DNA from: Candidatus Midichloria mitochondrii IricVA
Lineage (GTDB): Bacteria > Pseudomonadota > Alphaproteobacteria > Rickettsiales > Midichloriaceae
Reading direction: 5' to 3'
Length of the DNA: 32,000 bases
NCBI RefSeq assembly: GCF_000219355.1
Contig: NC_015722.1
Coordinates: 510,001 to 542,000 of the forward strand
The position numbers and the translations under genes were made by a program. A model generated the notes under the pieces. The model was not told the DNA's origin. It ran no database searches and worked only from the letters and a program-made list of their open reading frames with translations. Below, in pieces: positions 2,163 through 21,176 of the stretch (position 1 is its first letter; each line of letters starts with the position of its first letter).

Positions 2163-2876
2163 ATGTGGTCTGTGCGTATCCTGACGTTATTTCCTGAATT
2201 ATTTCCAGGGCCGCTAGCGTCTTCTATAACTGGTAGAGCCTTAAAAGAGGCCATATGGGAAATTAAGGCGATTGATGTGAGAGATTATGCCACAGATAAA
2301 CATAAAACCGTGGATGATTGCCCTTATGGAGGCGGAGGCGGGATGGTCGCGCGGCCTGATATTTTAGGTCAGGCCATAGAGGAGAATTTTATTTCTAATC
2401 AGAACGAAATTATTTATTTATCACCGCGCGGAGAGCTTTTTAATCAAGGCCTGGCGAGAGAGCTTACACAAAGAAAAGGAATAAATATTATATGTGGGAG
2501 GTTTGAAGGTATTGACGAAAGAGTAATAAATGAGTATAGAATACGTGAAGTTAGTATAGGGGATTTTGTATTATCGTCTGGTGATGTGGCTGCGTACTCT
2601 CTTTTGGATGCGTGCGTACGGCTTCTGCCAGGAGTTCTTGGCAATGGTGGTTCATTGGTTCAAGAAAGTTTTGGTTTGGACCATAATTATGAGATGTTGT
2701 TAGAGTACCCGCACTTTACAAGACCGCAAAATTGGAGGGATAGGCAGGTTCCGGAAGTTTTACTTTCGGGGAATCATCAATTGGTAGAAAATTGGCGATT
2801 AGAACAGGCGAAACAGAAAACGAAGGAGCAGCGCCCAGATCTTTGGAATAGATATTTGAGCAGGAAAGAAAAATGA
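2163..2876 (+). CDS. trmD: tRNA (guanine37-N1)-methyltransferase TrmD
   Basis: Full-length match to the TrmD pattern ([41 protein letters not shown]). Confidence 0.95.
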
Positions 2877-3273: not shown

Positions 3274-3876
3274 ATGCAAGATAGAATTTTCAACTACAGC
3301 TCTTTTTTTAGCAAATTCCCAGTTATAAACCTTGAAAATTTTATTTTGCGAGACTTGAGTTTATCCGATAATCAGAGATATTTTGAGGTTTTGAGCGATC
3401 CGAATGTCGCTCAATTCCTTTCTGATGAAGATGTTCCAGAGTCACCTTATAAAGCCCTAGAAGAAATAAAATTCTGGGGTAGCTTATTTTATAAGAAACA
3501 ATCAATCTTTTGGGCGATCGTAGAAAAAGAGACTAATAATCTAATAGGAACAGTGGGGTTCAACTCTTGGAATTTTAGCAGCCAACGTGCTGAGATGAGT
3601 TACGACTTAGCAAGTACCCATTGGCGTCGTAATATTATGTCTGAAGTTTTGTTTCATGTTTTAACTTTTGCCTTTACTAAAATGTGTATCAATAGAATAG
3701 AAGCTAAAACAATGACTCACAATGTAGCTTCTGCTGCTCTCTTACTAAAAATGGGTTTTAAAAAAGAAGGTGTATTAAAAAGCTATCGAAAAGTACGCAG
3801 TAAATTCATAGACGTAGATTTATATTCTCTACTTCGAGAAGAGTGGTCAGCTGCTAAAAATAAAGGCATTGCCTAA
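3274..3876 (+). CDS. GNAT family N-acetyltransferase (RimJ/RimL-like)
   Basis: RimJ/RimL-like pattern: L.LR.L...D...Y.E...DP.V, IGTVGF, and NRIEAKT...N.AS..LL.KMGFKKEG. The last three codons and the stop (GIA*) lie inside the IS1 terminus that begins at 3865. Confidence 0.8.
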   Translation: MQDRIFNYSSFFSKFPVINLENFILRDLSLSDNQRYFEVLSDPNVAQFLSDEDVPESPYKALEEIKFWGSLFYKKQSIFWAIVEKETNNLIGTVGFNSWNFSSQRAEMSYDLASTHWRRNIMSEVLFHVLTFAFTKMCINRIEAKTMTHNVASAALLLKMGFKKEGVLKSYRKVRSKFIDVDLYSLLREEWSAAKNKGIA

Positions 3877-4336
3877 TATTTATAGATAGGAGTTTCAGAT
3901 CCAGCAAATGCCTATGGAAGAAGAGGGTAAGAATAGCGCAAAGCATCCTCAGGAATTTGCTATAGCGCTTCGTTCTTCGATTAAAACTAGCTAGATAATG
4001 CCTTATTAAAGAATTCTTTGATTCTACAAATGAGGTCTCAGCTTTTGTTTTGTGATGGTGCGTGGAGATTTTATAGTATTCATAAACGCTGTAATCATCT
4101 GTACATGCTCAATTTATAACGTTCTTCCAAGCCTAAATGACAGGTTCAGGTGGGTTGCCTTGCTCCCGTCACCTACTTCAAAATCAATAATTTCACCCGC
4201 TCCTCTATCAACAGCAATCAATATAAAGGTGTACTCCCACTTCCATTCTTTGGTCTTTTTTTATATATGTGCACGGCTCATCGATCTCTAGGATCTCGAT
4301 ATCCTTAAGTGACTTTGTGCTGTTGCAGCTCTTATA
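3865..4336 (-). mobile_element. IS1-family element, 3' portion only (copy C), truncated by the IS982 insertion
   Basis: It begins with the terminal sequence ggcattgcctaatatttatagat, the reverse complement of the right end seen at 12399, 14689 and 21176. It is colinear with 20700-21176. Homology stops at 4336, where an IS982 terminus starts. Confidence 0.8.
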
Positions 4337-5253
4337 TAATCTCAGTTTGACGTAAGGAGTAGGGCCCGTGAGCCTATTTTCCATGAGATATATTGGGTTT
4401 GAAGACATAAGCCAAGAGCCCTGAGAGGAGGTCTGCCAAGAAATTGTTTGGCAAGCGATGCCGTGTTGTGCTGGACTTGGCAAATCTCTTTCAATTGTCC
4501 GATGGCTGTTTCAATCAATCCACGCCCTGCAAGAAGCAGTTGTTTAAAAGCCGCAAGCGGGTTTTGTCCTTGATTGCTCAGTGTTTGCTTATATACCACC
4601 GATCTCCGAATAGAAGGCCTGTCAAATATTGAGTCAGTTTCTCGACAACGGCTCGATCATCTGTATTACCCGAAGTCAGTGTGAATGACATAATCTCTCC
4701 TTGATCATTGAAGCCAAAGAACCATCCGGGTCGACGTTTTCCCACGCTGAGCGATGCCTTTAAGGATCTTATTACTGCTAGTACGTGAGTTATGACAAAC
4801 CTTCTCCAGCTTTTTGTTGAGTCAACGTACCTGTTTGTTTCCCTTTGCAGCAATTCAGCAGAATGACCAACGGGATGACCGCGTCTCGCATCAGCTCAAC
4901 AAAGCGATTGTAGCTGATAAGCTTCGGCAATTCCTCTCTGAGAGAGATTTGAACACAGTTTAGGTAAAAATCTTTGAATCCGGTAATGCCCTCTCAAATG
5001 AAACAAAACGAGGATCGTTATAACTTCGGAAAGCATCATCCCAGACTCTCGTTCCCTTTGTCTCTGCGAGTTTCTTAAGGATCTTTGGTACGTGAGTTGT
5101 CGCTTGCAAAAATCATCAATCAAACAAAATATTTCTACTAGGGGAACCACTTTTCTTATTTATCGTGAAATTGAGAAGAACTTAATGATTACACAGCTTC
5201 TTTAAGACCATATCAGATAATTTCTTTAAGACTTACCTCAAACTGGGGTTAAC
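4337..5253 (-). mobile_element. IS982-family insertion sequence with a frameshifted transposase (pseudogene)
   Basis: Three ORF pieces (4896-5150, 4578-4853, 4342-4599) carry IS982 hallmarks: EIFCLIDDFCK, SEVITILVLFH, VDST, GWFFGF, GEIMSFTLTSGNTDDR, LFGDRWYISK, GRGLIETAIGQLK. The terminal inverted repeats are ataatctcagtttgacgtaagg (4337) and cttacctcaaactggggttaac (about 5232-5253). Confidence 0.85.
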
Positions 5254-5546
5254 AAAAACACTGAGCAATCAAGGTATTGAGCTCGTCACCCACGGCTTAA
5301 GAAAAACATGAAAAACAAAACCCGCTTGCGGCTTTTAAACAACTGCTTCTTGCAGGGCGTGGATTGATTGAAACAGCCATCGGAGAATTGAAAGAGATTT
5401 GCCAAATCCAGTACACCACGGCATTGCTTGCCAAACAATTTCTTGGCAGACCTCCTCTCAAGGCTCTTGGCTTATGTCTTCAAACCCAATATATCTCATG
5501 GAAAATAGGCTCACGGGCTCTACTCCTTACGTCAAACTGAGGTTAT
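5254..5546 (+). mobile_element. Second IS982-family copy, 3' fragment only, inverted relative to the first
   Basis: Reverse-complement match to 4337-4590, including the terminal repeat ccttacgtcaaactgaggttat. It retains a segment of about 40 nt (tattgagctcgtcacccacggcttaagaaaaacatgaaaa) that the other copy has lost. Confidence 0.8.
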
Positions 5547-6224
5547 ATTAAGGAAATCCCTTGCTCTTTTAGTCGACGGAGAATTAAAAAAGTTACCTGC
5601 ATTATTATCCTCTATCAATTCTCCATGATCCAAAAATAAAACGCGATCAGCAATGCTTGCAGCAAACTTCATTGCGTGGGTTACTATTAGCATAGTAATA
5701 CCTGTATGGGCTAGGGACTTAATCACATCCAACACTTCCTTTACATTTTCAGGATCTAACGCTGATGTTGGCTCATCAAACAAAACAATCTCCGGGTCCA
5801 TGCATAAGGTCCTTGCAATTGCTGCCCTTTGTTTTTGCCCTCCTGACAAGGCCCAAGGGTAAGTATCTTTCAAATTATCTAGATTTACTCGCTCAAGCCA
5901 CTTGGTAGCTATGGAGATAGCGTCCTTTTTATTATACTTCAATACATTAATAGGCGCATAAGTTAGGTTCTCAATCAATGTCATGTTGTGAAACAAATTG
6001 AAATGTTGAAAAACCATCCCTATCTTGGTTTGAGGGAGGCCCTTTGCCTTAACAGAGCCACTTTCATACTTCTCTAAGTTACTAATACACCTCAGTACGG
6101 TGGATTTACCGCTGCCAGAAGGACCAATTAAAACCACTACTTGTCCCTTAAGTATCACAAAAGATACTTCATTCAGTATGATTTTTCCATTATATTTTTT
6201 AATTAACTTACTTATAGTTAGCAT
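5532..6224 (-). CDS. Polar amino-acid ABC transporter ATP-binding protein (GlnQ-like)
   Basis: Walker A GPSGSGKST, Q-loop, signature LSGGQKQR, Walker B VLFDEPTSALD and the H-loop are present. The preferred start is MLTISKL (6224); the track ORF runs to 6251. The last four codons and the stop come from the IS982 terminus. Confidence 0.9.
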   Translation of the reverse strand: MLTISKLIKKYNGKIILNEVSFVILKGQVVVLIGPSGSGKSTVLRCISNLEKYESGSVKAKGLPQTKIGMVFQHFNLFHNMTLIENLTYAPINVLKYNKKDAISIATKWLERVNLDNLKDTYPWALSGGQKQRAAIARTLCMDPEIVLFDEPTSALDPENVKEVLDVIKSLAHTGITMLIVTHAMKFAASIADRVLFLDHGELIEDNNAGNFFNSPSTKRARDFLNITSV

Positions 6225-11355: not shown

Positions 11356-11999
11356 GCAATGCCTGGTAATTATAGACAGCAATGAGAGGGTGTTGATATC
11401 TTCTAGTAGAATAGGTGGAGTAGAAATGGACAATCAAGTGTAAATATTGCGGCTCTAGCGAGCAGGTGAAGAATGGTGTGGTATAGGGACAGCAAGAGGT
11501 AATATAGGTGCAAGAATTGCAAAAAGAATTACCGAGAAGGTAATAAGCGACAGAAATACACTATGAATGATAGACTTAAAACCTAATCTTGAGGACTGCG
11601 GGATTAGGACGATAGAGAGACTGACTGGAATCCATAACAGCCAAATATCTTCATGGATCGAAGGACGGGGGGCGCTATGTGCAAGAAAAGTTAGATAAGA
11701 GCTGCAACAGCACAAAGTCACTTAAGGATATCGAGGTCCTAGAGATTGGCGAGCTGTGCACATATATAAAAAAAGACCAAAGAATGGAAGTGGGGTACAC
11801 CTTTATATTGATTGCAGTTGATAGAGGAGCGGGTGAAATTATTGATTTTGAAGTAGGTGACCGGGGAGTAAGGCAACCCACCTGAACCTGTCATTTAGGC
11901 TTTGAGGAACGTTATAAATGAGCATGTACAGATGATTACAGCGTTTATGAATACTATAAAATCTCCACGCACCATCACAGAACAAAAGCTGAGACATCA
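11356..11999 (+). mobile_element. IS1-family element copy A, 5' part (degenerate transposase)
   Basis: The left end caatgcctggtaattatagac is shared with 20369. It encodes the InsA-like zinc finger KCKYCGSSEQVKNG, an HTH (RTIERLTGIHNSQISSWI) and an InsB-like core (ELCTYIKKDQRMEVG, ILIAVDRGAGEIIDFEVGDRG), all broken by stops and frameshifts. Confidence 0.8.
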
Positions 12000-12202
12000 G
12001 TGAAATATCAAACAAAAAGGGCGACCAAAAAGTATAAACTTTTCAACGCCTTTTTGAAACAATTTCCAAGCTTATAAAACTTGATAAGGAACCGGTCTTC
12101 CAGCCGCATCACGCACTAAATCACCGTTATCAAATTTAGCTGCTACATAATTGCCATGCCCAATTTTTCCGCCCTTATACATTACAGGTTTCACTTCTTT
12201 TG
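12000..12202 (-). pseudogene. Non-IS insert carrying the 3' end (43 codons plus stop) of an unidentified gene
   Basis: Track ORF 12072-12266: its first 21 codons are antisense IS1 sequence. The remainder, AKEVKPVMYKGGKIGHGNYVAAKFDNGDLVRDAAGRPVPYQVL*, is unrelated to the IS. The insert is flanked by a duplicated 30-bp IS1 segment. Confidence 0.35.
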
Positions 12203-12399
12203 CACCATCACAAAACAAAGGCTGGGACATCATTGTGGTAGAATCAAAGAATTCTTTAAGAGGCATTATCTAGCTAGTTTTAATCGAAGAACGAAGCGCT
12301 ATAGCAAATTCCTGAGGATGCTTTGCACTATTCTTAACCTCTTCTTCCATAGGCATCTGCTGGATTTGAAACTCCTATCTATAAATATTAGGCAATGCC
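12203..12399 (+). mobile_element. IS1-family element copy A, 3' part with the right terminus
   Basis: Colinear with 20980-21176 (ITKQRLGHHCGRIKEFFKRHYLASFNRRTKRYSK). It ends with ctatctataaatattaggcaatgcc. Confidence 0.8.
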
Positions 12400-12462
12400 G
12401 AAAAATTTGATATAACTTTGTTGCAATCATGAGAAAAGTATGGTTGAATGGCCCGGAAAATT

Positions 12463-12548
12463 GGAGGGGTGGCCGAGTGGACAAAGGCAGCAGACTGTAA
12501 ATCTGCCCGCGTATGCGTTCGTAGGTTCGAATCCTACCTCCTCCACCA
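12463..12548 (+). tRNA. tRNA-Tyr (anticodon GTA), long variable arm, CCA encoded
   Basis: GGAGGGGTGGCCGAGTGG...CAGACTGTAAATCTG...GGTTCGAATCCTACCTCCTCCACCA; the acceptor strands are complementary. Confidence 0.9.
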
Positions 12549-12634
12549 CCTTTTAATTAAGTTATTAAGGTTATAAGAATTTGACATTATGCAGGGATCG
12601 TTGTAAGCATAATGGAAGTTTTTAAGAATATTAC

Positions 12635-12709
12635 GCGGGCGTAGCTCAATGGTAGAGTCCCAGCCTTCCAAGCTGGTAGTTGTGGGTTCGATTCCCATCG
12701 CCCGCTCCA
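12635..12709 (+). tRNA. tRNA-Gly (anticodon TCC), CCA encoded
   Basis: GCGGGCGTAGCTCAATGGTAGAGTCCCAGCCTTCCAAGCTGGTAGTTGTGGGTTCGATTCCCATCGCCCGCTCCA. Confidence 0.9.
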
Positions 12710-12731
12710 TTACGTAAATAAAAAGGAGCAT

Positions 12732-13910
12732 ATGGCAAAGGAGAAATTTGTAAGAAATAAACCGCACGTGAATATAGGAACTATAGGTCACGTGGATCAT
12801 GGTAAGACAAGCTTGACAGCAGCACTAACCAAGATGTTTGGAAGGTATGTTAAGTATGATGAGATAGATAAGGCGCCAGAAGAGAAGGCAAGAGGAATCA
12901 CCATTAACTCAGCTCACGTTGAGTACGAAACAGAAAACAGACACTATGCGCACGTTGATTGTCCTGGACACGCGGATTATGTAAAAAACATGATTACAGG
13001 AGCTGCCCAAATGGATGGAGCTATACTCGTAGTCAGTGCAGCTGATGGTCCTATGCCACAGACTAGGGAGCATATCTTACTTGCTCGCCAGGTTGGTGTA
13101 CCTGCTCTGGTAGTATTCCTGAATAAGGTGGACATGGTGGATGATCCGGAACTATTAGAATTAGTTGAAATGGAAGTGAGGGATCTATTAAATCAATATG
13201 GGTTTCCAGGAGATCAAATTCCAGTTATTAAGGGATCAGCGCTGATGGCGTTGGAAGGAAAGAATCCAGCTCTTGGAGAAGAAGCGATTAAGGAATTAAT
13301 GAAGCAAGTTGATGAGTATATTCCACTACCTACTCGTAGTGTAGATAAACCATTCTTAATGCCAGTAGAAGACGTGTTCTCAATATCAGGAAGAGGAACT
13401 GTTGCAACTGGTCGTGTAGAACAAGGAGTTGTTAAGGTGGGTGAAGAGATTGAGATAGTGGGACTAAAGGCGCAGAGTAGCAAGACTACATGTACTGGAG
13501 TAGAAATGTTTAGAAGGTTACTTGATCAAGGAGAAGCTGGAGATAACGTAGGATTATTGTTAAGGGGGATAGAGAGAGATCAAATAGAAAGGGGTCAAGT
13601 ATTGGCTAAACCTGGAACAATTAAGCCTCATAAGAAATTCAGAGCAGAAGTATATATCTTAAAGAAGGAAGAAGGAGGAAGACATACACCGTTTGTGAGC
13701 AATTATAGGCCACAGTTTTACTTCAGAACTACCGATGTTACTGGAACTATCAACTTAAAGGCAGGGGTAGAGATGGTAATGCCAGGAGATAATACTGAAA
13801 TCATGGTTGAATTAATTTCACCTATTGCGATGGATAAAGGATTAAAATTTGCGATTCGTGAAGGCGGCAGAACAGTTGGTGCAGGCGTTGTTGCAGAAAT
13901 TATTGAATAA
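12732..13910 (+). CDS. tuf: Translation elongation factor Tu
   Basis: Unambiguous EF-Tu ([32 protein letters not shown]). There is a strong SD (aaaggag) 5 nt upstream. Confidence 0.98.
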
Positions 13911-14689: not shown

Positions 14690-15340
14690 ATATTACTTAC
14701 CCGATAACAAACCTACATGAGACACTATTGTATTAACCTTACAGGGATGTCATAGCAATTCTCTACACCACAAAAGTATTTTATATAGGTAAAGGCAGTC
14801 AAAACAGATCAAAACCCGCAATAGTTAAACATTTATACTGCATTATAACTCTCCAAAATGTGAAAATATGTTGAGAGCGCCTCCCTCCATAAGGATCCTC
14901 CAGGCTGTGCTGAATTGAAGTACTTTATGTTTTCAACTCTAGCTGTTCCAATCGCTGTAATACTTATTGATAGTTTATCGGAAGATTTAGTTGTATCACC
15001 CCCAATCAGCACTATCGAATTATTTTTACAGATAGCGGTAAAAGCCTGCAAAAATTCACTTATATATTTTTCATATGAGAGCGGTATCGCAATATCCATA
15101 AGTACAAACAGAGGAGTAGCTCCCATCGCAGCAATATCGCTTAAGTTAACATGGAGGGATTTGTGAGCAAGACCACTTGGCTTAAAGTAAGAGGTACGAA
15201 AATGCACATCTTCTACTAATATATCCTAGTAACAATATACTTTTGCTCGCCTTGGTAAGGTATAACCGCTGCGTCATCTCCAATATATTGTGGGGAAACT
15301 CTGATTTTAAGAAATTAACCAATTTTTCTTCACTTAACAT
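14690..15340 (-). pseudogene. thiL: Thiamine-monophosphate kinase, frameshifted and 3'-truncated
   Basis: The ATG at 15340 gives MLSEEKLVNFLKSEFPH. After frameshifts the reading continues NIGDDAAVIP, EDVHFRTSY, LHVNLSDIAAMGATP, VLIGGDTT, ISITAIG and AQPG. The expected last third is missing, cut off at the IS1 fragment. Confidence 0.8.
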
Positions 15341-16121
15341 AAAATTGCTTCATATAATCAAAGTTTGCAGCATATAACTCATCAATAAAAGCCACCATAA
15401 AAGATGCGGGACTGTTCGCTCTCTTCTACGCTAAATTACCACGCAAACCAAAATAACTTGTAGCAAAAAGTGAGCCGCTTCAAACGAATTAGGGATACCG
15501 CTCTAAAAGTAGCTATAACAGCTGTTAAATACACACCTCATACCAGTAACTAACGGCATAAGAGGAGAGCCAAATGGTGTAGAATTTTTTTCTTTATCAG
15601 CATCAGTAATAAAATCTTTCTCACCACTTACAACCACCGTAATATTATGTTCCTTGGCCAAGGCTTGAGCTTTGTCTTTTGTTTCTTCAATTGTATTAAG
15701 AGTCTCAACTCCGAAAGTTTTATTTTGTGTGTTGTGAAGCGCAATAATTTCACTAGCATTGCCCCTTACAATATCAGCATATTGTAGAAGATCACCCAGC
15801 AACCCTTATTCTAATGTGAGCTGCACCAGCTCCTACCGGATCTGGAATAACAGGTTTTTTGCATTTTTTAGCAATTTCTGCTGCACTTTCACATCTTTTA
15901 ATAAAATCTAAATCTAACGTTCCAATATTTAGATTAACTGCTGAAGAAATTTTAATTAACTCTTCCAATTCTTCCTAGCAAATATACATAATTGGGGCAG
16001 CCCCAATTGCAAGCAGAGCATTAGCCATAAACCTCACAGTGACATAAATTAGTCAATTTAATAGCAAAGGCTTAGACTGTCTTATGTTATTCACTGCTAT
16101 TTCTTCTATACCTCTTAGCAC
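15330..16121 (-). pseudogene. thiM: Hydroxyethylthiazole kinase, full length but riddled with stops and frameshifts
   Basis: Pieces across frames: NNIRQSKPLLLN*LIYVTV, MANALLAIGAAPIM, AVNLNIGTL, PVIPDPVGAGA, VRGNASEIIAL, VVVSGEKDFITD, SPLMPLVTGM.C, GPASFMVAFIDELY. The span is about 264 codons, as expected for ThiM. The stop overlaps the thiL start. Confidence 0.8.
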
Positions 16122-16170
16122 GAATTGACCTCTCTTAGATACAATTTAAAGCAGATTTTTAGCAGCTTGT

Positions 16171-16679
16171 TCAGGATTTTAGCGTATCATGAAAGACGCT
16201 AATAGCGGCAATTCCTGCAGCACCCGCAAGTTATGACTTCTTATACGTTTAACTAATTGATCCCACCAACCGCAATGACTGGACGTTTCGAAAATTGTGC
16301 TACTCCTTTTAACCCTGCAAGACCCCAAATCGTCTCCACATTGCTTTTACTTTTAGTCTGGCACATAAGCACCAGCTCCAACATAATCTATTGGTAACTC
16401 TCTTCATCGGTTTGTCCTAAATGTAGGCCTTCTACATCTAATTCTAAAGCAAGTTCTAGGCCACCATTTATAATAAAGCAGTATTTGAAAAGGCTTCAGC
16501 ACAACTTTCAGCTGTCTACCAAATTCTATTAATTCTTTATAGCTTTTTTTGCCTTTTTCGTGGAGCTGTACAGAAGTGATTCCAGCCTCAGCGCAAGCCT
16601 CAATAAATCTAAGATAATTATTTAAAGGCTGATCATTTTTATAGGTAATCAGCATTAATTGATGAAATGAACCTACCAA
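16171..16679 (-). pseudogene. thiE: Thiamine-phosphate synthase, frameshifted
   Basis: The TTG start has a GAGG SD. The translation includes LMLITYKN, GITSVQLHEKGK, then frameshifts, then KRPVIAVGGIN and AGAAGIAAISVF in other frames. Confidence 0.8.
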
Positions 16680-16769
16680 CGTTACCTCAAATTTTTAAAA
16701 AGAGGAAGTAAATTCAAAAAACCAACAAGGCCTATAAGCAGAAGTATAAGCACAAAAATCTTATTGTTT

Positions 16770-16850
16770 CACACTCCCCTCGCTAGATTTAACTAGACCA
16801 GGTCCTAAGGTTTTTTTCAGCCAACCTTCAACCAGCACCCCTAGCGATAC
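16770..16850 (-). promoter_or_regulatory. TPP (THI-box) riboswitch aptamer upstream of thiE
   Basis: Minus-strand RNA: GCUAGGGGUGCUGGUUGAAGGUUGGCUGAAAAAAACCUUAGGACCUGGUCUAGUUAAAUCUAGCGAGGGGAGU. It contains GGGGUGC, a CUGA(G>A)A junction, ACCU, ACCUGGUCUAG-UUAAAU-CUAGCG (E. coli thiM has ACCUGAUCUGGAUAAUGCCAGCG) and GGGGA, in canonical order. It lies about 90 nt 5' of the thiE start. Confidence 0.7.
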
Positions 16851-16862
16851 TTACCTTCTGAG

Positions 16863-16891
16863 CTTCTATCTTAAAAATACAAAACTGTCAA
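16863..16891 (-). promoter_or_regulatory. Candidate sigma70 promoter for the riboswitch-thiEML transcript
   Basis: On the minus strand: TTGACA (16891-16886), a 17-nt spacer, then TAGAAG (16868-16863), just upstream of the aptamer. Confidence 0.3.
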
Positions 16892-16908
16892 TTATTAAAA
16901 AATAAAGG

Positions 16909-16937
16909 TTGAATTTCAGAAGGTTTTATATTATTAA
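16909..16937 (+). promoter_or_regulatory. Candidate sigma70 promoter for rpmI-rplT
   Basis: TTGAAT, a 17-nt spacer, then TATTAA, about 70 nt upstream of the rpmI ATG. It is divergent from the thi promoter. Confidence 0.3.
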
Positions 16938-17008
16938 TTTCCCAGTCGTTTAACCGCATAGGGTTGGGGCATGCCTTAAACGGTATTTATTTTTTTATAG
17001 GAGTAAAA

Positions 17009-18020: not shown

Positions 18021-18500
18021 GTGATTGGTGTAAAAGGTTTGGTTATTGCAGGCTTGCTTGCAGTTATAATGTCTACTGCTGATTCTTGGCTAAATACTAC
18101 AAGTACGCTGGTAACAAATGATGTTATTTTACCATTAGTACCTATGACTGAAAAGAAGGTTTTAATTATTGCTAGATGTGCTACTTTTATAATAGCTATT
18201 TTATCCATCCTTCTATCTCTGTCTGGAAAGGGTGTAGTGGAACTAAATTGGCTGGCTGGTAATTTCTGGGAACCACTAATTATATTACCTCTTGCCGCTG
18301 GTTTTTTAAAATTTTGGACGAATTCTAAATCTTTTATATAGCATCAGTGACGCTTGCAGTCGCCTTTGCCTGTATCAGTGCCTGTATAGTAGGGTGTAGG
18401 TGACTTCTCAACGATCAGCCCCTAATGTGGTGGCATGATAGGTAGTGCTATAGGTTTATTTGGTATGCATCACTGGCAGAAAGGTCAAGGTATGGACCCA
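18021..18500 (+). pseudogene. Sodium:solute symporter (SSS family) fragment
   Basis: IGVKGLVIAGLLAVIMSTADSWLNTTSTLVTNDV is the conserved SSS TM segment (GL..AG.LAA.MST.DS.L). There is no N-terminal two-thirds. The downstream TM-like pieces (after 18341) are in other frames. The 3' limit is approximate. Confidence 0.6.
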
Positions 18501-18899: not shown

Positions 18900-20219
18900 A
18901 TGAATAGAATAGCAATTATAGGAGCGGGTCTTGCTGGCCTTACCGCGGCTTATCGTCTACATAAGGAAAATTCAAATGTTGATATATTTGAAGCAAGAAA
19001 CAGAGTGGGTGGTAGAGTTTTTACAGTACTAATGGAAAAATTATCTTGGGCAAAAAACAGAAGTAGAACTCGGAGGACAAAATATTACTGATGGTGGAGA
19101 AGCAGTAAATTTATTAGGATTGATAAAAGAATTAAGTCTTGAAGTACAAGAAAAACCAATCAAGTTGAATTTGCTGGTGATTACTATGATTATGACGAGC
19201 TAGTAAAGGATCATAGTAAGACTTATAAAGACCTTCCACTGTTAGCGAATAGCGCAGAAAATATAGGTATAGATATGTTTTGAGGCAAGAGTGCAATTTT
19301 AAAGCAAGCACTGCTCACCAGGATCACTGCTTATGAAGGCATAGACGTTTATCAACAATCTATCTATCATAACATAGAAAGCTTAGAATATATGATACGT
19401 AGCGGCTTATCAAAATTCCATAAACTTAATGCAGATAACGATGATTATATTACAACTAGCTCTATTGCTGGAGGGAATGCTCGTTTGCCAATCTCTATTT
19501 CAGAAATTATAAAAAACAATATCCACTCTAACAAAGTGCTGTCTAAAGTCAGTTTTGATAGTAGTGCTGTTAAAATAGAATTTACTGATAAATCTTATTA
19601 TAGCTACGACTTAGTTGTATTGGCAACACCAGCTTCTACATTCAAATTTATAGACTTCTCTGATGTTGGAATAGAAGATAGAAGATTATCTTATATTCGT
19701 TCAATTCAGTATGGGAAAATTTTAAAATTGCCATGTCACTCAATTAAAACTCTGCAAATTCTTATCGTTCTGTGATAACAGACAGTACAATATCGTTTTA
19801 ATCATGATAAAACTATACAACTAGTGTATGCTTACGAACCAGTATTAGATGCATCAAAATTTGTGAATATCACCATTGTAGATCTTGATGCAATACAGCA
19901 AGAATTTTCAAGCGAACCCATCCCCGGGGTTATGCAAAAGTATTATAGTATCTATAAAGAGCCTATTCAATGTCATTGGCATAATGATTTATTTTCAATG
20001 GGTTCATATTCAGGATATTCAACTGCGATTTCAAAAGAACTTGATAATATCACTCAGCATAATGGTACATATTATAAAACAATGTTTTTACCTGTTCAAA
20101 ATTCTATGTTCTTTGTTGGTGAACATACAACTATTCTAGAATGTATAGGTACAATGGAAGCTGCTGTTGAATCGGGTGAACGTATAGCATGCGCTATTAT
20201 AAAAAGATGTAAAAAATAA
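18900..20219 (+). pseudogene. Flavin-containing amine oxidase, broken into at least three frames
   Basis: FAD dinucleotide-binding N-terminus IAIIGAGLAGLTAAYRL...FEARNRVGGRV. Later pieces are ELGGQNITDGGE (shifted frame), SIAGGNARLP, YDLVVLATPAS and the C-terminal FFVGEHT...GTMEAAVESGERIA. Confidence 0.8.
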
Positions 20220-20368: not shown

Positions 20369-21176
20369 CAATGCCTGGTAATTATAGACGGCAACAAGAT
20401 GGTATGATATCTTCATAGTATAATAGGTGGAGTAGAAATGGACAATCAAGTGTAAATATTGTGGCTCTCGAGCAGGTGAAGAATGGCGTGGTATAGGGAC
20501 AGCAGAGGTATAGATGCAAGAATTGCAAAAAGAATTACCGAGAAGGTAATAAGCGACAGAAATACACTATGAATGATAGACTTAAAACCTAATCTTGAGG
20601 ACTGCGGGATTAGGACGATAAGAGAGACTGACTGGAATCCATAACAGCCAAATATCTTCATGGATCGAAGGACGGGGGGACGCTATGTGCAAGAAAAGTT
20701 AGATAAGAGCTGCAACAGCACAAAGTCACTTAAGGATATCGAGGTCCTAGAGATTGAGGAGCTGTGCACATATATAAAAAAAGACCAAAGAATGGAAGTG
20801 GGAGTACACCTTTATATGGATTACTGTTGATAGAGGAGCGGGTGAAATTATTGATTTTGAAGGTAGGTGACGGGAGCAAGGCAACCCACCTGAACCTGTC
20901 ATTTAGGCTTTGAGGAACGTTATAAATTGAGCATGTACAGATGATTACAGCGTTTACGAATACTATAAAATCTCCACGCACCATCACAAAACAAAGGCTG
21001 AGACATCATTGTGGTAGAATCAAAGAATTCTTTAAGAGGCATTATCTAGCTAGTTTTAATCGAAGAACGAAGCGCTATAGCAAACCCCTGAGGATGCTTT
21101 GCGCTACTCTTACCCTCTTCTTCCATAGGCATTTGTTGGATTTGAAACTTCTATCTACTAAATATTAGGCAACGCC
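20369..21176 (+). mobile_element. IS1-family element copy B, complete length (~0.8 kb) with both termini; the transposase is degenerate
   Basis: Left end caatgcctggtaattatagac, right end ctactaaatattaggcaacgcc. Colinear with copy A and copy C. The reading frame is interrupted repeatedly. Confidence 0.85.

Follow-up and report, generated by a model that had tools for sequence, protein, structure and literature searches.

A probable relic TPP riboswitch of the tick symbiont Candidatus Midichloria mitochondrii, ahead of a pseudogenised operon for thiamine salvage

In the aptamer of TPP riboswitches, the highly conserved residues are U39-A43, U59, A80, G60, C77 and G78 (PMC3764141; aptamer residues are numbered here as in E. 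coli thiM). Residue G42 sits in the G19-G42-A47 triple and position 55 in the 55-A80-U59 triple, and the A-minor contacts of A41, A56 and A84 enter the P2 pairs G16-C50, G17-C49 and G18-C48 (PMC3764141). In endosymbiont or otherwise reduced genomes, riboswitches have mostly been lost along with their cognate genes, and TPP and thiamine biosynthesis in Buchnera is the example that the authors of that survey give themselves (Matelska et al. 2016, PMC4779614). The survey scored presence or absence at the level of families.

The locus analysed here belongs to Candidatus Midichloria mitochondrii, a tick symbiont, and lies on the minus strand of a 32,000-nucleotide stretch of its genome, which we call the window. 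It is similar to the co-loss described in PMC4779614 in that a cis-regulator vanishes with its pathway. In contrast to family-level presence and absence, it displays intermediate stages of this process side by side within one genus. The element also shares much with the E. coli thiM-type TPP switch (RF00059), including a match over the full length of the model with the P1 to P5 segments aligned in canonical order, a position within the thiE-thiM 5' leader, the GGGGUGC motif, the ACCUG...GCG...GGGA arm, residues G60, C77 and G78, and a leader with a predicted hairpin that would sequester the Shine-Dalgarno (SD) sequence. Unlike the thiM-type switch, it carries G42A, A55G, A61G and A80G together with the loss of a P2 cytosine, reaches only 43.7 bits against RF00059, has a wobble-rich P3, and precedes genes that are pseudogenes with no function left. 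Several defining features of the family thus fail, and the element is not filed as a functional RF00059 member. It is a degenerate RF00059 homolog of the kind that genome reduction is expected to leave behind, rather than a regulator that has survived. The features of the locus are collected in Table 1.

Table 1. Positions in the window of the aptamer, its damaged residues, the leader, the candidate promoter and the thi pseudogenes
Feature	Position	Strand	Description
TPP (THI-box) aptamer, probable relic	16757..16852	minus	RF00059 43.7 bits; R1 66.6 bits; sister orthologs
P1 5' strand UCGC	16844..16847	minus	pairs with GUGA at 16769-16772
P2 3' strand	16808..16811	minus	ACCC -> ACC(U), one C gone; 5' strand 16839-16842
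P3 arm GCUGGUUGAAGGUUGGC	16820..16836	minus	2 G-C pairs plus wobble pairs; ancestral within the genus
J3-2 pyrimidine-sensor T-loop	16814..16819	minus	UGAAAA vs UGAGAA; G42>A at 16816
J2-4	16803..16807	minus	A55>G at 16804
Pyrophosphate-sensor arm	16777..16802	minus	P4, J4-5, P5, L5
P4	16799-16802 with 16777-16780	minus	A80>G at 16779: U-A -> U.G
J4-5		minus	A61>G at 16798
P5	16793-16796 with 16783-16786	minus	intact, CUAG/CUAG, perfectly paired
L5	16787-16792	minus	
G42	16816		G in 33/33 other aligned aptamers; A in window
First C of P2 ACCC	16811 (aligned)		C in 34/40 others; one C missing in window
A55	16804		A in 37/40 others; G in window
A61	16798		A in 33/40, G in 0/40 others; G in window
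A80	16779		A in 40/40 others; G in window
Leader, putative expression-platform remnant	16680..16756	minus	predicted SD hairpin
Possible promoter, weak candidate	16863..16891	minus	TTGACA 16891-16886, 17 nt, TAGAAG 16868-16863
thiE pseudogene (thiamine-phosphate synthase)	16171..16679	minus	PF02581, TIGR00693; fragments in three frames
thiM pseudogene (hydroxyethylthiazole kinase)	15330..16150	minus	PF02110; stops, frameshifts
thiL pseudogene (thiamine-phosphate kinase)	14833..15325	minus	PF00586; TIGR01379 120.5 bits vs cut-off 184

The initial annotation had read the minus strand of 16770-16850, whose letters are exactly as transcribed there, as a TPP riboswitch in an intergenic stretch that no ORF accounts for. 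The latter point holds, as no ORF of at least 40 aa overlaps 16680-16963 on either strand. We carried out a permissive cmscan of 16600-17000, and the resulting RF00059 match spanned model positions 1-105 of 105 (E=1.9e-7; by an arithmetic estimate ~1.5e-5 when rescaled to the full 32 kb window). Its score is under the RF00059 gathering score of 54.3 bits, and when the complete window was scanned against Rfam with the default gathering cut-offs, only four tRNAs and no TPP match were reported. A score below the gathering threshold had been named at the outset as grounds for abandoning the identification, and such a score is what was found; homology is still certain. A covariance model of our own (R1), which was built from 12 Rfam-validated aptamers with the window sequence left out, matched the element over 16763-16849 with E=3e-16. 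Sequences with a P3a insert were excluded from the MAFFT alignment behind R1, as they were misplaced when included. The R1 consensus structure had 87.7% of cells paired and a covariation score of 0.43, compared to 0.14 in shuffles, and R1 recovered 42 aptamers from 90 loci. A profile search of genome contigs with a ThiM alignment, among whose listed matches there were no close relatives, served only as a broad aptamer sample. The element is, on the strength of these sequence matches, certainly a homolog of the TPP riboswitch RF00059, and the original view that it is a real TPP-riboswitch-derived element is upheld by the full-model match and by sister orthologs that score above the gathering threshold. 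A match below an Rfam threshold can therefore still be a true homolog. Of the landmarks listed earlier, GGGGUGC, the pyrophosphate arm (ACCUG...GCG) and GGGA are all present, CUGAAA does stand where CUGAGA is usual, and the element lies, as claimed, about 90 nt upstream of the thiE start, a TTG at 16679.

The genes behind the element are dead. On the downstream minus strand, stops occur throughout all three frames and the protein-like segments change frame. The aptamer ends ~90 nt upstream of thiE, which is followed by thiM and thiL, the location typical of a thi leader. Within thiE, the window has a private 84-nt deletion and an in-frame TAG at 16390-16388 that is common to the window and both sister lineages described below. 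Because this TAG is common to the three lineages, the operon was already dead in their common ancestor. The thiM sequence, reconstructed across two stops and one frameshift, matched PF02110 with 161 bits, and its TGA at 16055-16053 is common to the window and one of the sister lineages (L090). In thiL, the N-terminal AIRS domain alone is recognisable, and it is frameshifted; the C-terminal half is gone. Thus, with stops and frameshifts in thiE, thiM and thiL in all frames, the thiamine operon is fully pseudogenised, as first proposed. When ThiE, ThiD and TenA of the nearest intact operon were used as tblastn queries against the Midichloria loci, no matches were obtained, and no remnant of thiD or tenA was detectable in these loci. 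The ThiE query is too divergent for this purpose, and the assignment of the Midichloria thiE rests on its Pfam and NCBIfam matches. Upstream of the aptamer, rpmI and rplT are intact and divergent from the thi operon. The next feature past the thi pseudogenes is a tRNA-Trp on the opposite strand. There is no other minus-strand gene downstream of the thi remnants before this tRNA, and therefore nothing intact remains under the control of the leader. These results confirm that thiamine salvage by thiE, thiM and thiL has been lost at this locus in M. mitochondrii, which bears on the question of which B vitamins the tick symbiont can supply or must import.

The element itself is damaged at five near-invariant positions (Table 1). 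The J3-2 T-loop, U39-G40-A41-G42-A43 in the known aptamer, reads UGAAA in the window; one C of the three P2 pairs G16-C50, G17-C49 and G18-C48 is deleted; and the U59-A80 pair and the position-55 adenine are altered by A80G and A55G. The pair formed by residues 59 and 80 is U-A in 40/41 sequences, and the sole U.G is that of the window. Thus, the damage falls on the elements described in PMC3764141, both of the triples and the P2 receptors of the A-minor contacts, and the five damaged residues bring the score under the Rfam threshold. Pyrophosphate-sensor residues G60 (16799), C77 (16782) and G78 (16781) are kept.

Two sister contigs, reached through variant L20 proteins of other Midichloria sp., carry the aptamer at the same site adjoining rpmI. 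They scored 64.9 bits (GCA_030068805.1, L090) and 59.5 bits (GCA_030068825.1, L088) against RF00059, above the gathering score in both cases, and are ~90% identical to the window aptamer in a three-way alignment. Like the window, both have the position divergent from rpmI-rplT, the P3 arm, L5 (UUAAAU), P5 (CUAG/CUAG) and a dead thi operon; their thi genes are degraded too, with extra deletions. Unlike the window, they keep CUGAGA, ACCC, A55, A61 and A80, and their aptamers read CUGAGA, ACCC, GAUC and GAAGGGA/GAAAGGA. Since both sister aptamers have the consensus base at all five damaged positions, the five changes are derived in M. mitochondrii. L088 differs from the window in two substitutions of its own, which lead to C.A mismatches in P3 and P4. 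In L090, where the aptamer occupies 2266-2361 (minus strand), ~107 nt with the leader, the SD sequence and the thiE start are deleted, equivalent to window 16620-16726. Despite its high score, the L090 aptamer is unable to regulate anything; the riboswitch is dead, yet standard annotation pipelines would report it. Hence, a match above the Rfam gathering score is no proof of a working riboswitch, as the sisters score 59-65 bits ahead of a dead operon. No TPP match was found in a third sister lineage (L089, L091 and L092), and homology to this lineage starts exactly at the 5' edge of the aptamer (window 16855, L090 2364). From a breakpoint at this edge, the third lineage has lost both the aptamer and the operon. 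Three stages of riboswitch loss, an intact-looking, a mutated and a deleted aptamer, are thus found in one genus.

The comparison with the sisters also changes how P3 and P5 should be read. The P3 arm had been correctly described as having two G-C pairs and wobble pairs otherwise, next to a CUGAAA junction. In the window it is GCUGG/UUGGC, and its wobble-rich composition had been attributed to C-to-T decay of a G-C helix. We rejected recent C-to-T decay in M. mitochondrii, as the same arm is common to the sister lineages; the wobble-rich arm is older than the M. mitochondrii lineage. The sister P3 (GCGGGUU...GGUUGGC) has an extra G.G mismatch where the window U forms U.G. This U is probably ancestral and the sisters' G derived, because U is the commonest base there among the other aptamers. 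As for P5, CUAG/CUAG does support a real helix, as had been argued, but not a compensatory change specific to this lineage. The variant is common among natural aptamers (A-U in 13/41), ancestral in the genus and present in the sisters as well, and says nothing of recent selection.

We counted the substitutions unique to the window in the three-way alignment of the window, L090 and L088, which corresponds to a three-taxon unrooted tree. The aptamer has 8 such substitutions in 96 sites and a 1-nt deletion (0.083 per site), as compared to 12/156 in the promoter intergenic region (0.077 per site), 21/434 in the thiE pseudogene (0.048), 17/522 in the thiM pseudogene (0.033), 3/201 in rpmI (0.015) and 11/363 in rplT (0.030). 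By Fisher tests, the aptamer did not differ from the promoter intergenic region (p=1.0), was marginally above the thiE and thiM pseudogenes (38/956; OR 2.2, p=0.06) and was faster than rpmI and rplT (14/564; p=0.008), with all of these comparisons resting on small counts. Of the 9 changes that appear window-specific on this tree, the broad aptamer sample allowed no more than 5 to be polarised; among the remainder, at least the P3 U/G difference is probably a change on the sister side. The rate comparison gave no sign of purifying selection on the aptamer along the window branch. The sister branches, with 0 and 2 changes observed and ~1.1 and 2.5 expected, are too short to test constraint. We also observed that, read on the RNA-sense strand, 5 of the 8 window-specific substitutions in the aptamer were A>G. 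In thiE and thiM, too, this class outnumbered every other (13/41), which is unexpected for an AT-rich genome, and part of this excess may reflect reversed polarity on the unrooted tree.

The RecG and L20 proteins of the window match those of M. mitochondrii exactly, and within this species the window is 99.8-99.9% identical to other assemblies from position 12731 onward. Comparison of the strains gave 7 differences in 3.4 kb and 0 in the aptamer, which is identical in five M. mitochondrii sequences; as only ~0.2 differences were expected in the aptamer, the zero strain polymorphism is uninformative. At position 16544, in a homopolymer of the thiE pseudogene, the window has one T that is missing from four other assemblies of the species; either the run is polymorphic in length or the difference arose in sequencing.

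Folding of the element was examined next to that of its relatives. In the window, 20/22 model pairs are standard pairs, and the canonical fold is 17.1 kcal/mol less stable than the minimum free energy (MFE) fold, which is a different structure. The corresponding gap is 18.0 kcal/mol in L088 and 10.9 kcal/mol in L090, and before intact operons it is mostly 1-7 kcal/mol, with a maximum of 11.2 kcal/mol. The unconstrained MFE fold of the element is not the THI-box fold (z=-1.5), a result that is not evidence either way. The leader is predicted to form a hairpin (z=-2.27) in which CCUC (16705-16702) is base-paired with GAGG (16688-16685), the Shine-Dalgarno sequence, and the TTG start is covered. 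L088 has kept the hairpin sequence, and L090 has lost it by deletion. A promoter and terminator scan found no intrinsic terminator in the leader, and a transcription-termination platform was accordingly dropped for SD sequestration. In the folding model, the leader hairpin could have acted as the switch.

Upstream of the aptamer, the initial annotation had placed a TTGACA -35 element. The hexamer is indeed present, but it has no consensus -10 at 16-18 nt, TAGAAG being the best, and the consensus promoter scan did not call it. The candidate promoter is conserved in the sister lineages, including those without the aptamer.

Taken together, the changes at five conserved positions, the neutral rates and the dead cargo lead us to conclude that the element is, with high probability, a fossil TPP riboswitch that is decaying neutrally along with its dead thi cargo. 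Of the two possibilities raised at first, that of a regulator decaying together with its cargo fits the rates and the damaged near-invariant positions. That of a riboswitch which has been retained, or has outlived its cargo, does not, given that the aptamer changes at a rate at or above that of the pseudogenes and that five near-invariant positions are altered. Against the conclusion of a decaying fossil stand the intact G60, C77, G78 and P5, and the 20/22 model pairs that can still form.

The following course of events would account for the locus. The ancestor of the tick-associated Midichloria would have possessed a thiamine-salvage operon, thiE-thiM-thiL, divergent from rpmI-rplT and with a THI-box aptamer ahead of it. 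This aptamer most likely controlled translation in the manner of thiM. With TPP bound, the anti-SD segment could have paired with the Shine-Dalgarno sequence and the start codon, giving a translational OFF switch. The operon would have been inactivated before the sampled Midichloria lineages split, which would have left the aptamer without anything to regulate and evolving neutrally. In M. mitochondrii, it would then have lost 1 nt and taken 8 substitutions, with five of the changes falling on residues that build the pocket for the ligand and the tertiary scaffold. The sisters would represent other stages, two with aptamers that are still intact-looking (one without its expression platform) and a third lineage without the aptamer. 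To judge by the residues altered, the window aptamer has very probably lost any useful affinity for TPP. With its cargo dead, the ancestral switch no longer has an output. The locus implies no new mechanism; it offers a well-resolved snapshot of a known process of co-loss, a small natural experiment that could help to calibrate the speed at which structured cis-regulators decay once their cargo has gone.

The strongest competitor to neutral decay, which we regard as improbable, is that the element is an orphan but functional riboswitch, which still senses TPP and is selected for another role despite the death of thiE, thiM and thiL. Such a role might be, for instance, to attenuate divergent transcription next to the rpmI-rplT promoter or to act as a regulatory or sponge RNA. 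Consistent with such a role, the full-length element is still recognisable, the two sister aptamers exceed the Rfam threshold though the operon died before the split, P5, G60, C77 and G78 are intact with 20/22 pairs formable, and the element shows no strain polymorphism in five M. mitochondrii sequences. The last of these observations carries no weight, as ~0.2 differences were expected. Along the window branch, the aptamer has changed no more slowly than the pseudogenes and at the same rate as the flanking intergenic DNA, five near-invariant residues are altered, and no intact gene lies downstream; moreover, L090 lacks the expression platform and the L089 lineage lacks the whole element, with no visible replacement. 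In a variant that we consider somewhat less probable again, the aptamer was kept as an orphan TPP-binding RNA after the death of the operon, and only M. mitochondrii was recently released from constraint; the above-threshold scores of the two sister aptamers, in L090 despite the deleted platform, would be in keeping with this. If an orphan TPP-binding RNA did exist here, riboswitch aptamer function would be independent of any downstream gene.

Intact relatives of the operon give a baseline of function. The closest intact ThiM proteins, with 54-62% identity to the Midichloria thiM, are encoded on metagenome contigs in thiE-thiM-thiD(-tenA) operons. Each of these nearest intact operons has an RF00059 match of 56-60 bits directly upstream of thiE that is visibly homologous to the window element. 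We also noted that the named ThiM homologs (46-54% identity) include those of Legionellales, Francisellaceae, an Alphaproteobacteria MAG and Wolbachia wCfeT, and that vertical relatives in the Rickettsiales are not prominent among them. It is possible, from this distribution of sequences, that the salvage operon and its riboswitch were acquired horizontally among intracellular bacteria. A metagenome scan for CUGAAA-type aptamers gave 8 pattern matches, of which 2 were credible aptamers and the other 6 were rejected. One CUGAAA aptamer (L095, metagenome contig Ga0105048_10056045, GC-rich) is located at 4216-4303 and overlaps the start codon of thiD (ORF 4301-5188). This thiD (HMP-P kinase) is intact (TIGR00097, 292.7 bits). 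The L095 aptamer is like that of the window in having G42A (CUGAAA) in J3-2, and differs in being otherwise canonical, with P2 ACCC, A61 and an intact U59-A80 pair, and in having intact cargo; the window has four more changes at conserved positions and no intact cargo. G42A is very rare, and alone it is no proof of lost function, because L095, canonical otherwise, abuts an intact thiD. L095 is therefore a candidate for gauging how far the pyrimidine sensor tolerates G42A.

It is conceivable that the element is a functional variant of altered specificity, in which G42A and the junction changes have shifted ligand preference towards a precursor or analogue of thiamine. The clustering of the changes in ligand-proximal regions and the rare natural CUGAAA variant ahead of an intact thiD are in keeping with this explanation. 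Nevertheless, we consider it very unlikely, in view of the missing intact cargo, damage that extends to the scaffold (P2 with its deletion, and the triple of position 55 with U59-A80), changes none of which is compensatory, and pseudogene-like rates across the element in the same lineage. Finally, a chance resemblance to a THI box in AT-rich intergenic DNA, for which the score under the Rfam gathering threshold and an MFE fold that is not the THI-box fold (z only -1.5) might speak, has next to no probability given E=1.9e-7 over the full model and the correct position and orientation before thiE, and is refuted by orthology with the above-threshold sister elements, which are syntenic and ~90% identical. 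Neutral decay of a once-functional TPP riboswitch thus remains our preferred explanation.

Several further observations concern the surroundings of the locus. A rearrangement breakpoint lies at tuf, as seen when window 12463-13910 is compared with positions 2516-6677 of L001/L002. The gene order in the window is tRNA-Tyr, tRNA-Gly, tuf, tRNA-Trp, and at the same junction the 99.9%-identical assemblies have rpsL-rpsG-fusA-tuf, with identity setting in precisely where tuf begins (12731). The pattern points to two tuf copies having recombined, with a result that varies among strains or assemblies. A repeat family is present in the window at 3865-4574, 5308-5548, 11357-11999, 12202-12408 and 20369-21176. 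Its copies are 92-96% identical to one another, and there are more of them in L001. One ORF, at 4578-4853 on the minus strand, encodes part of a DDE transposase (PF13612), and the family represents IS remnants strewn over the region, one copy of which adjoins the tuf breakpoint. Further pseudogenes are found past rplT (18021-18341 and 19392-20219), namely part of a sodium:solute symporter gene (PF00474) and an amine oxidase gene (PF01593) that is broken into several ORFs. In the L089/L091 lineage, an intact symporter of 474-520 aa is located upstream of rpmI, with a DNA identity of only 72%.
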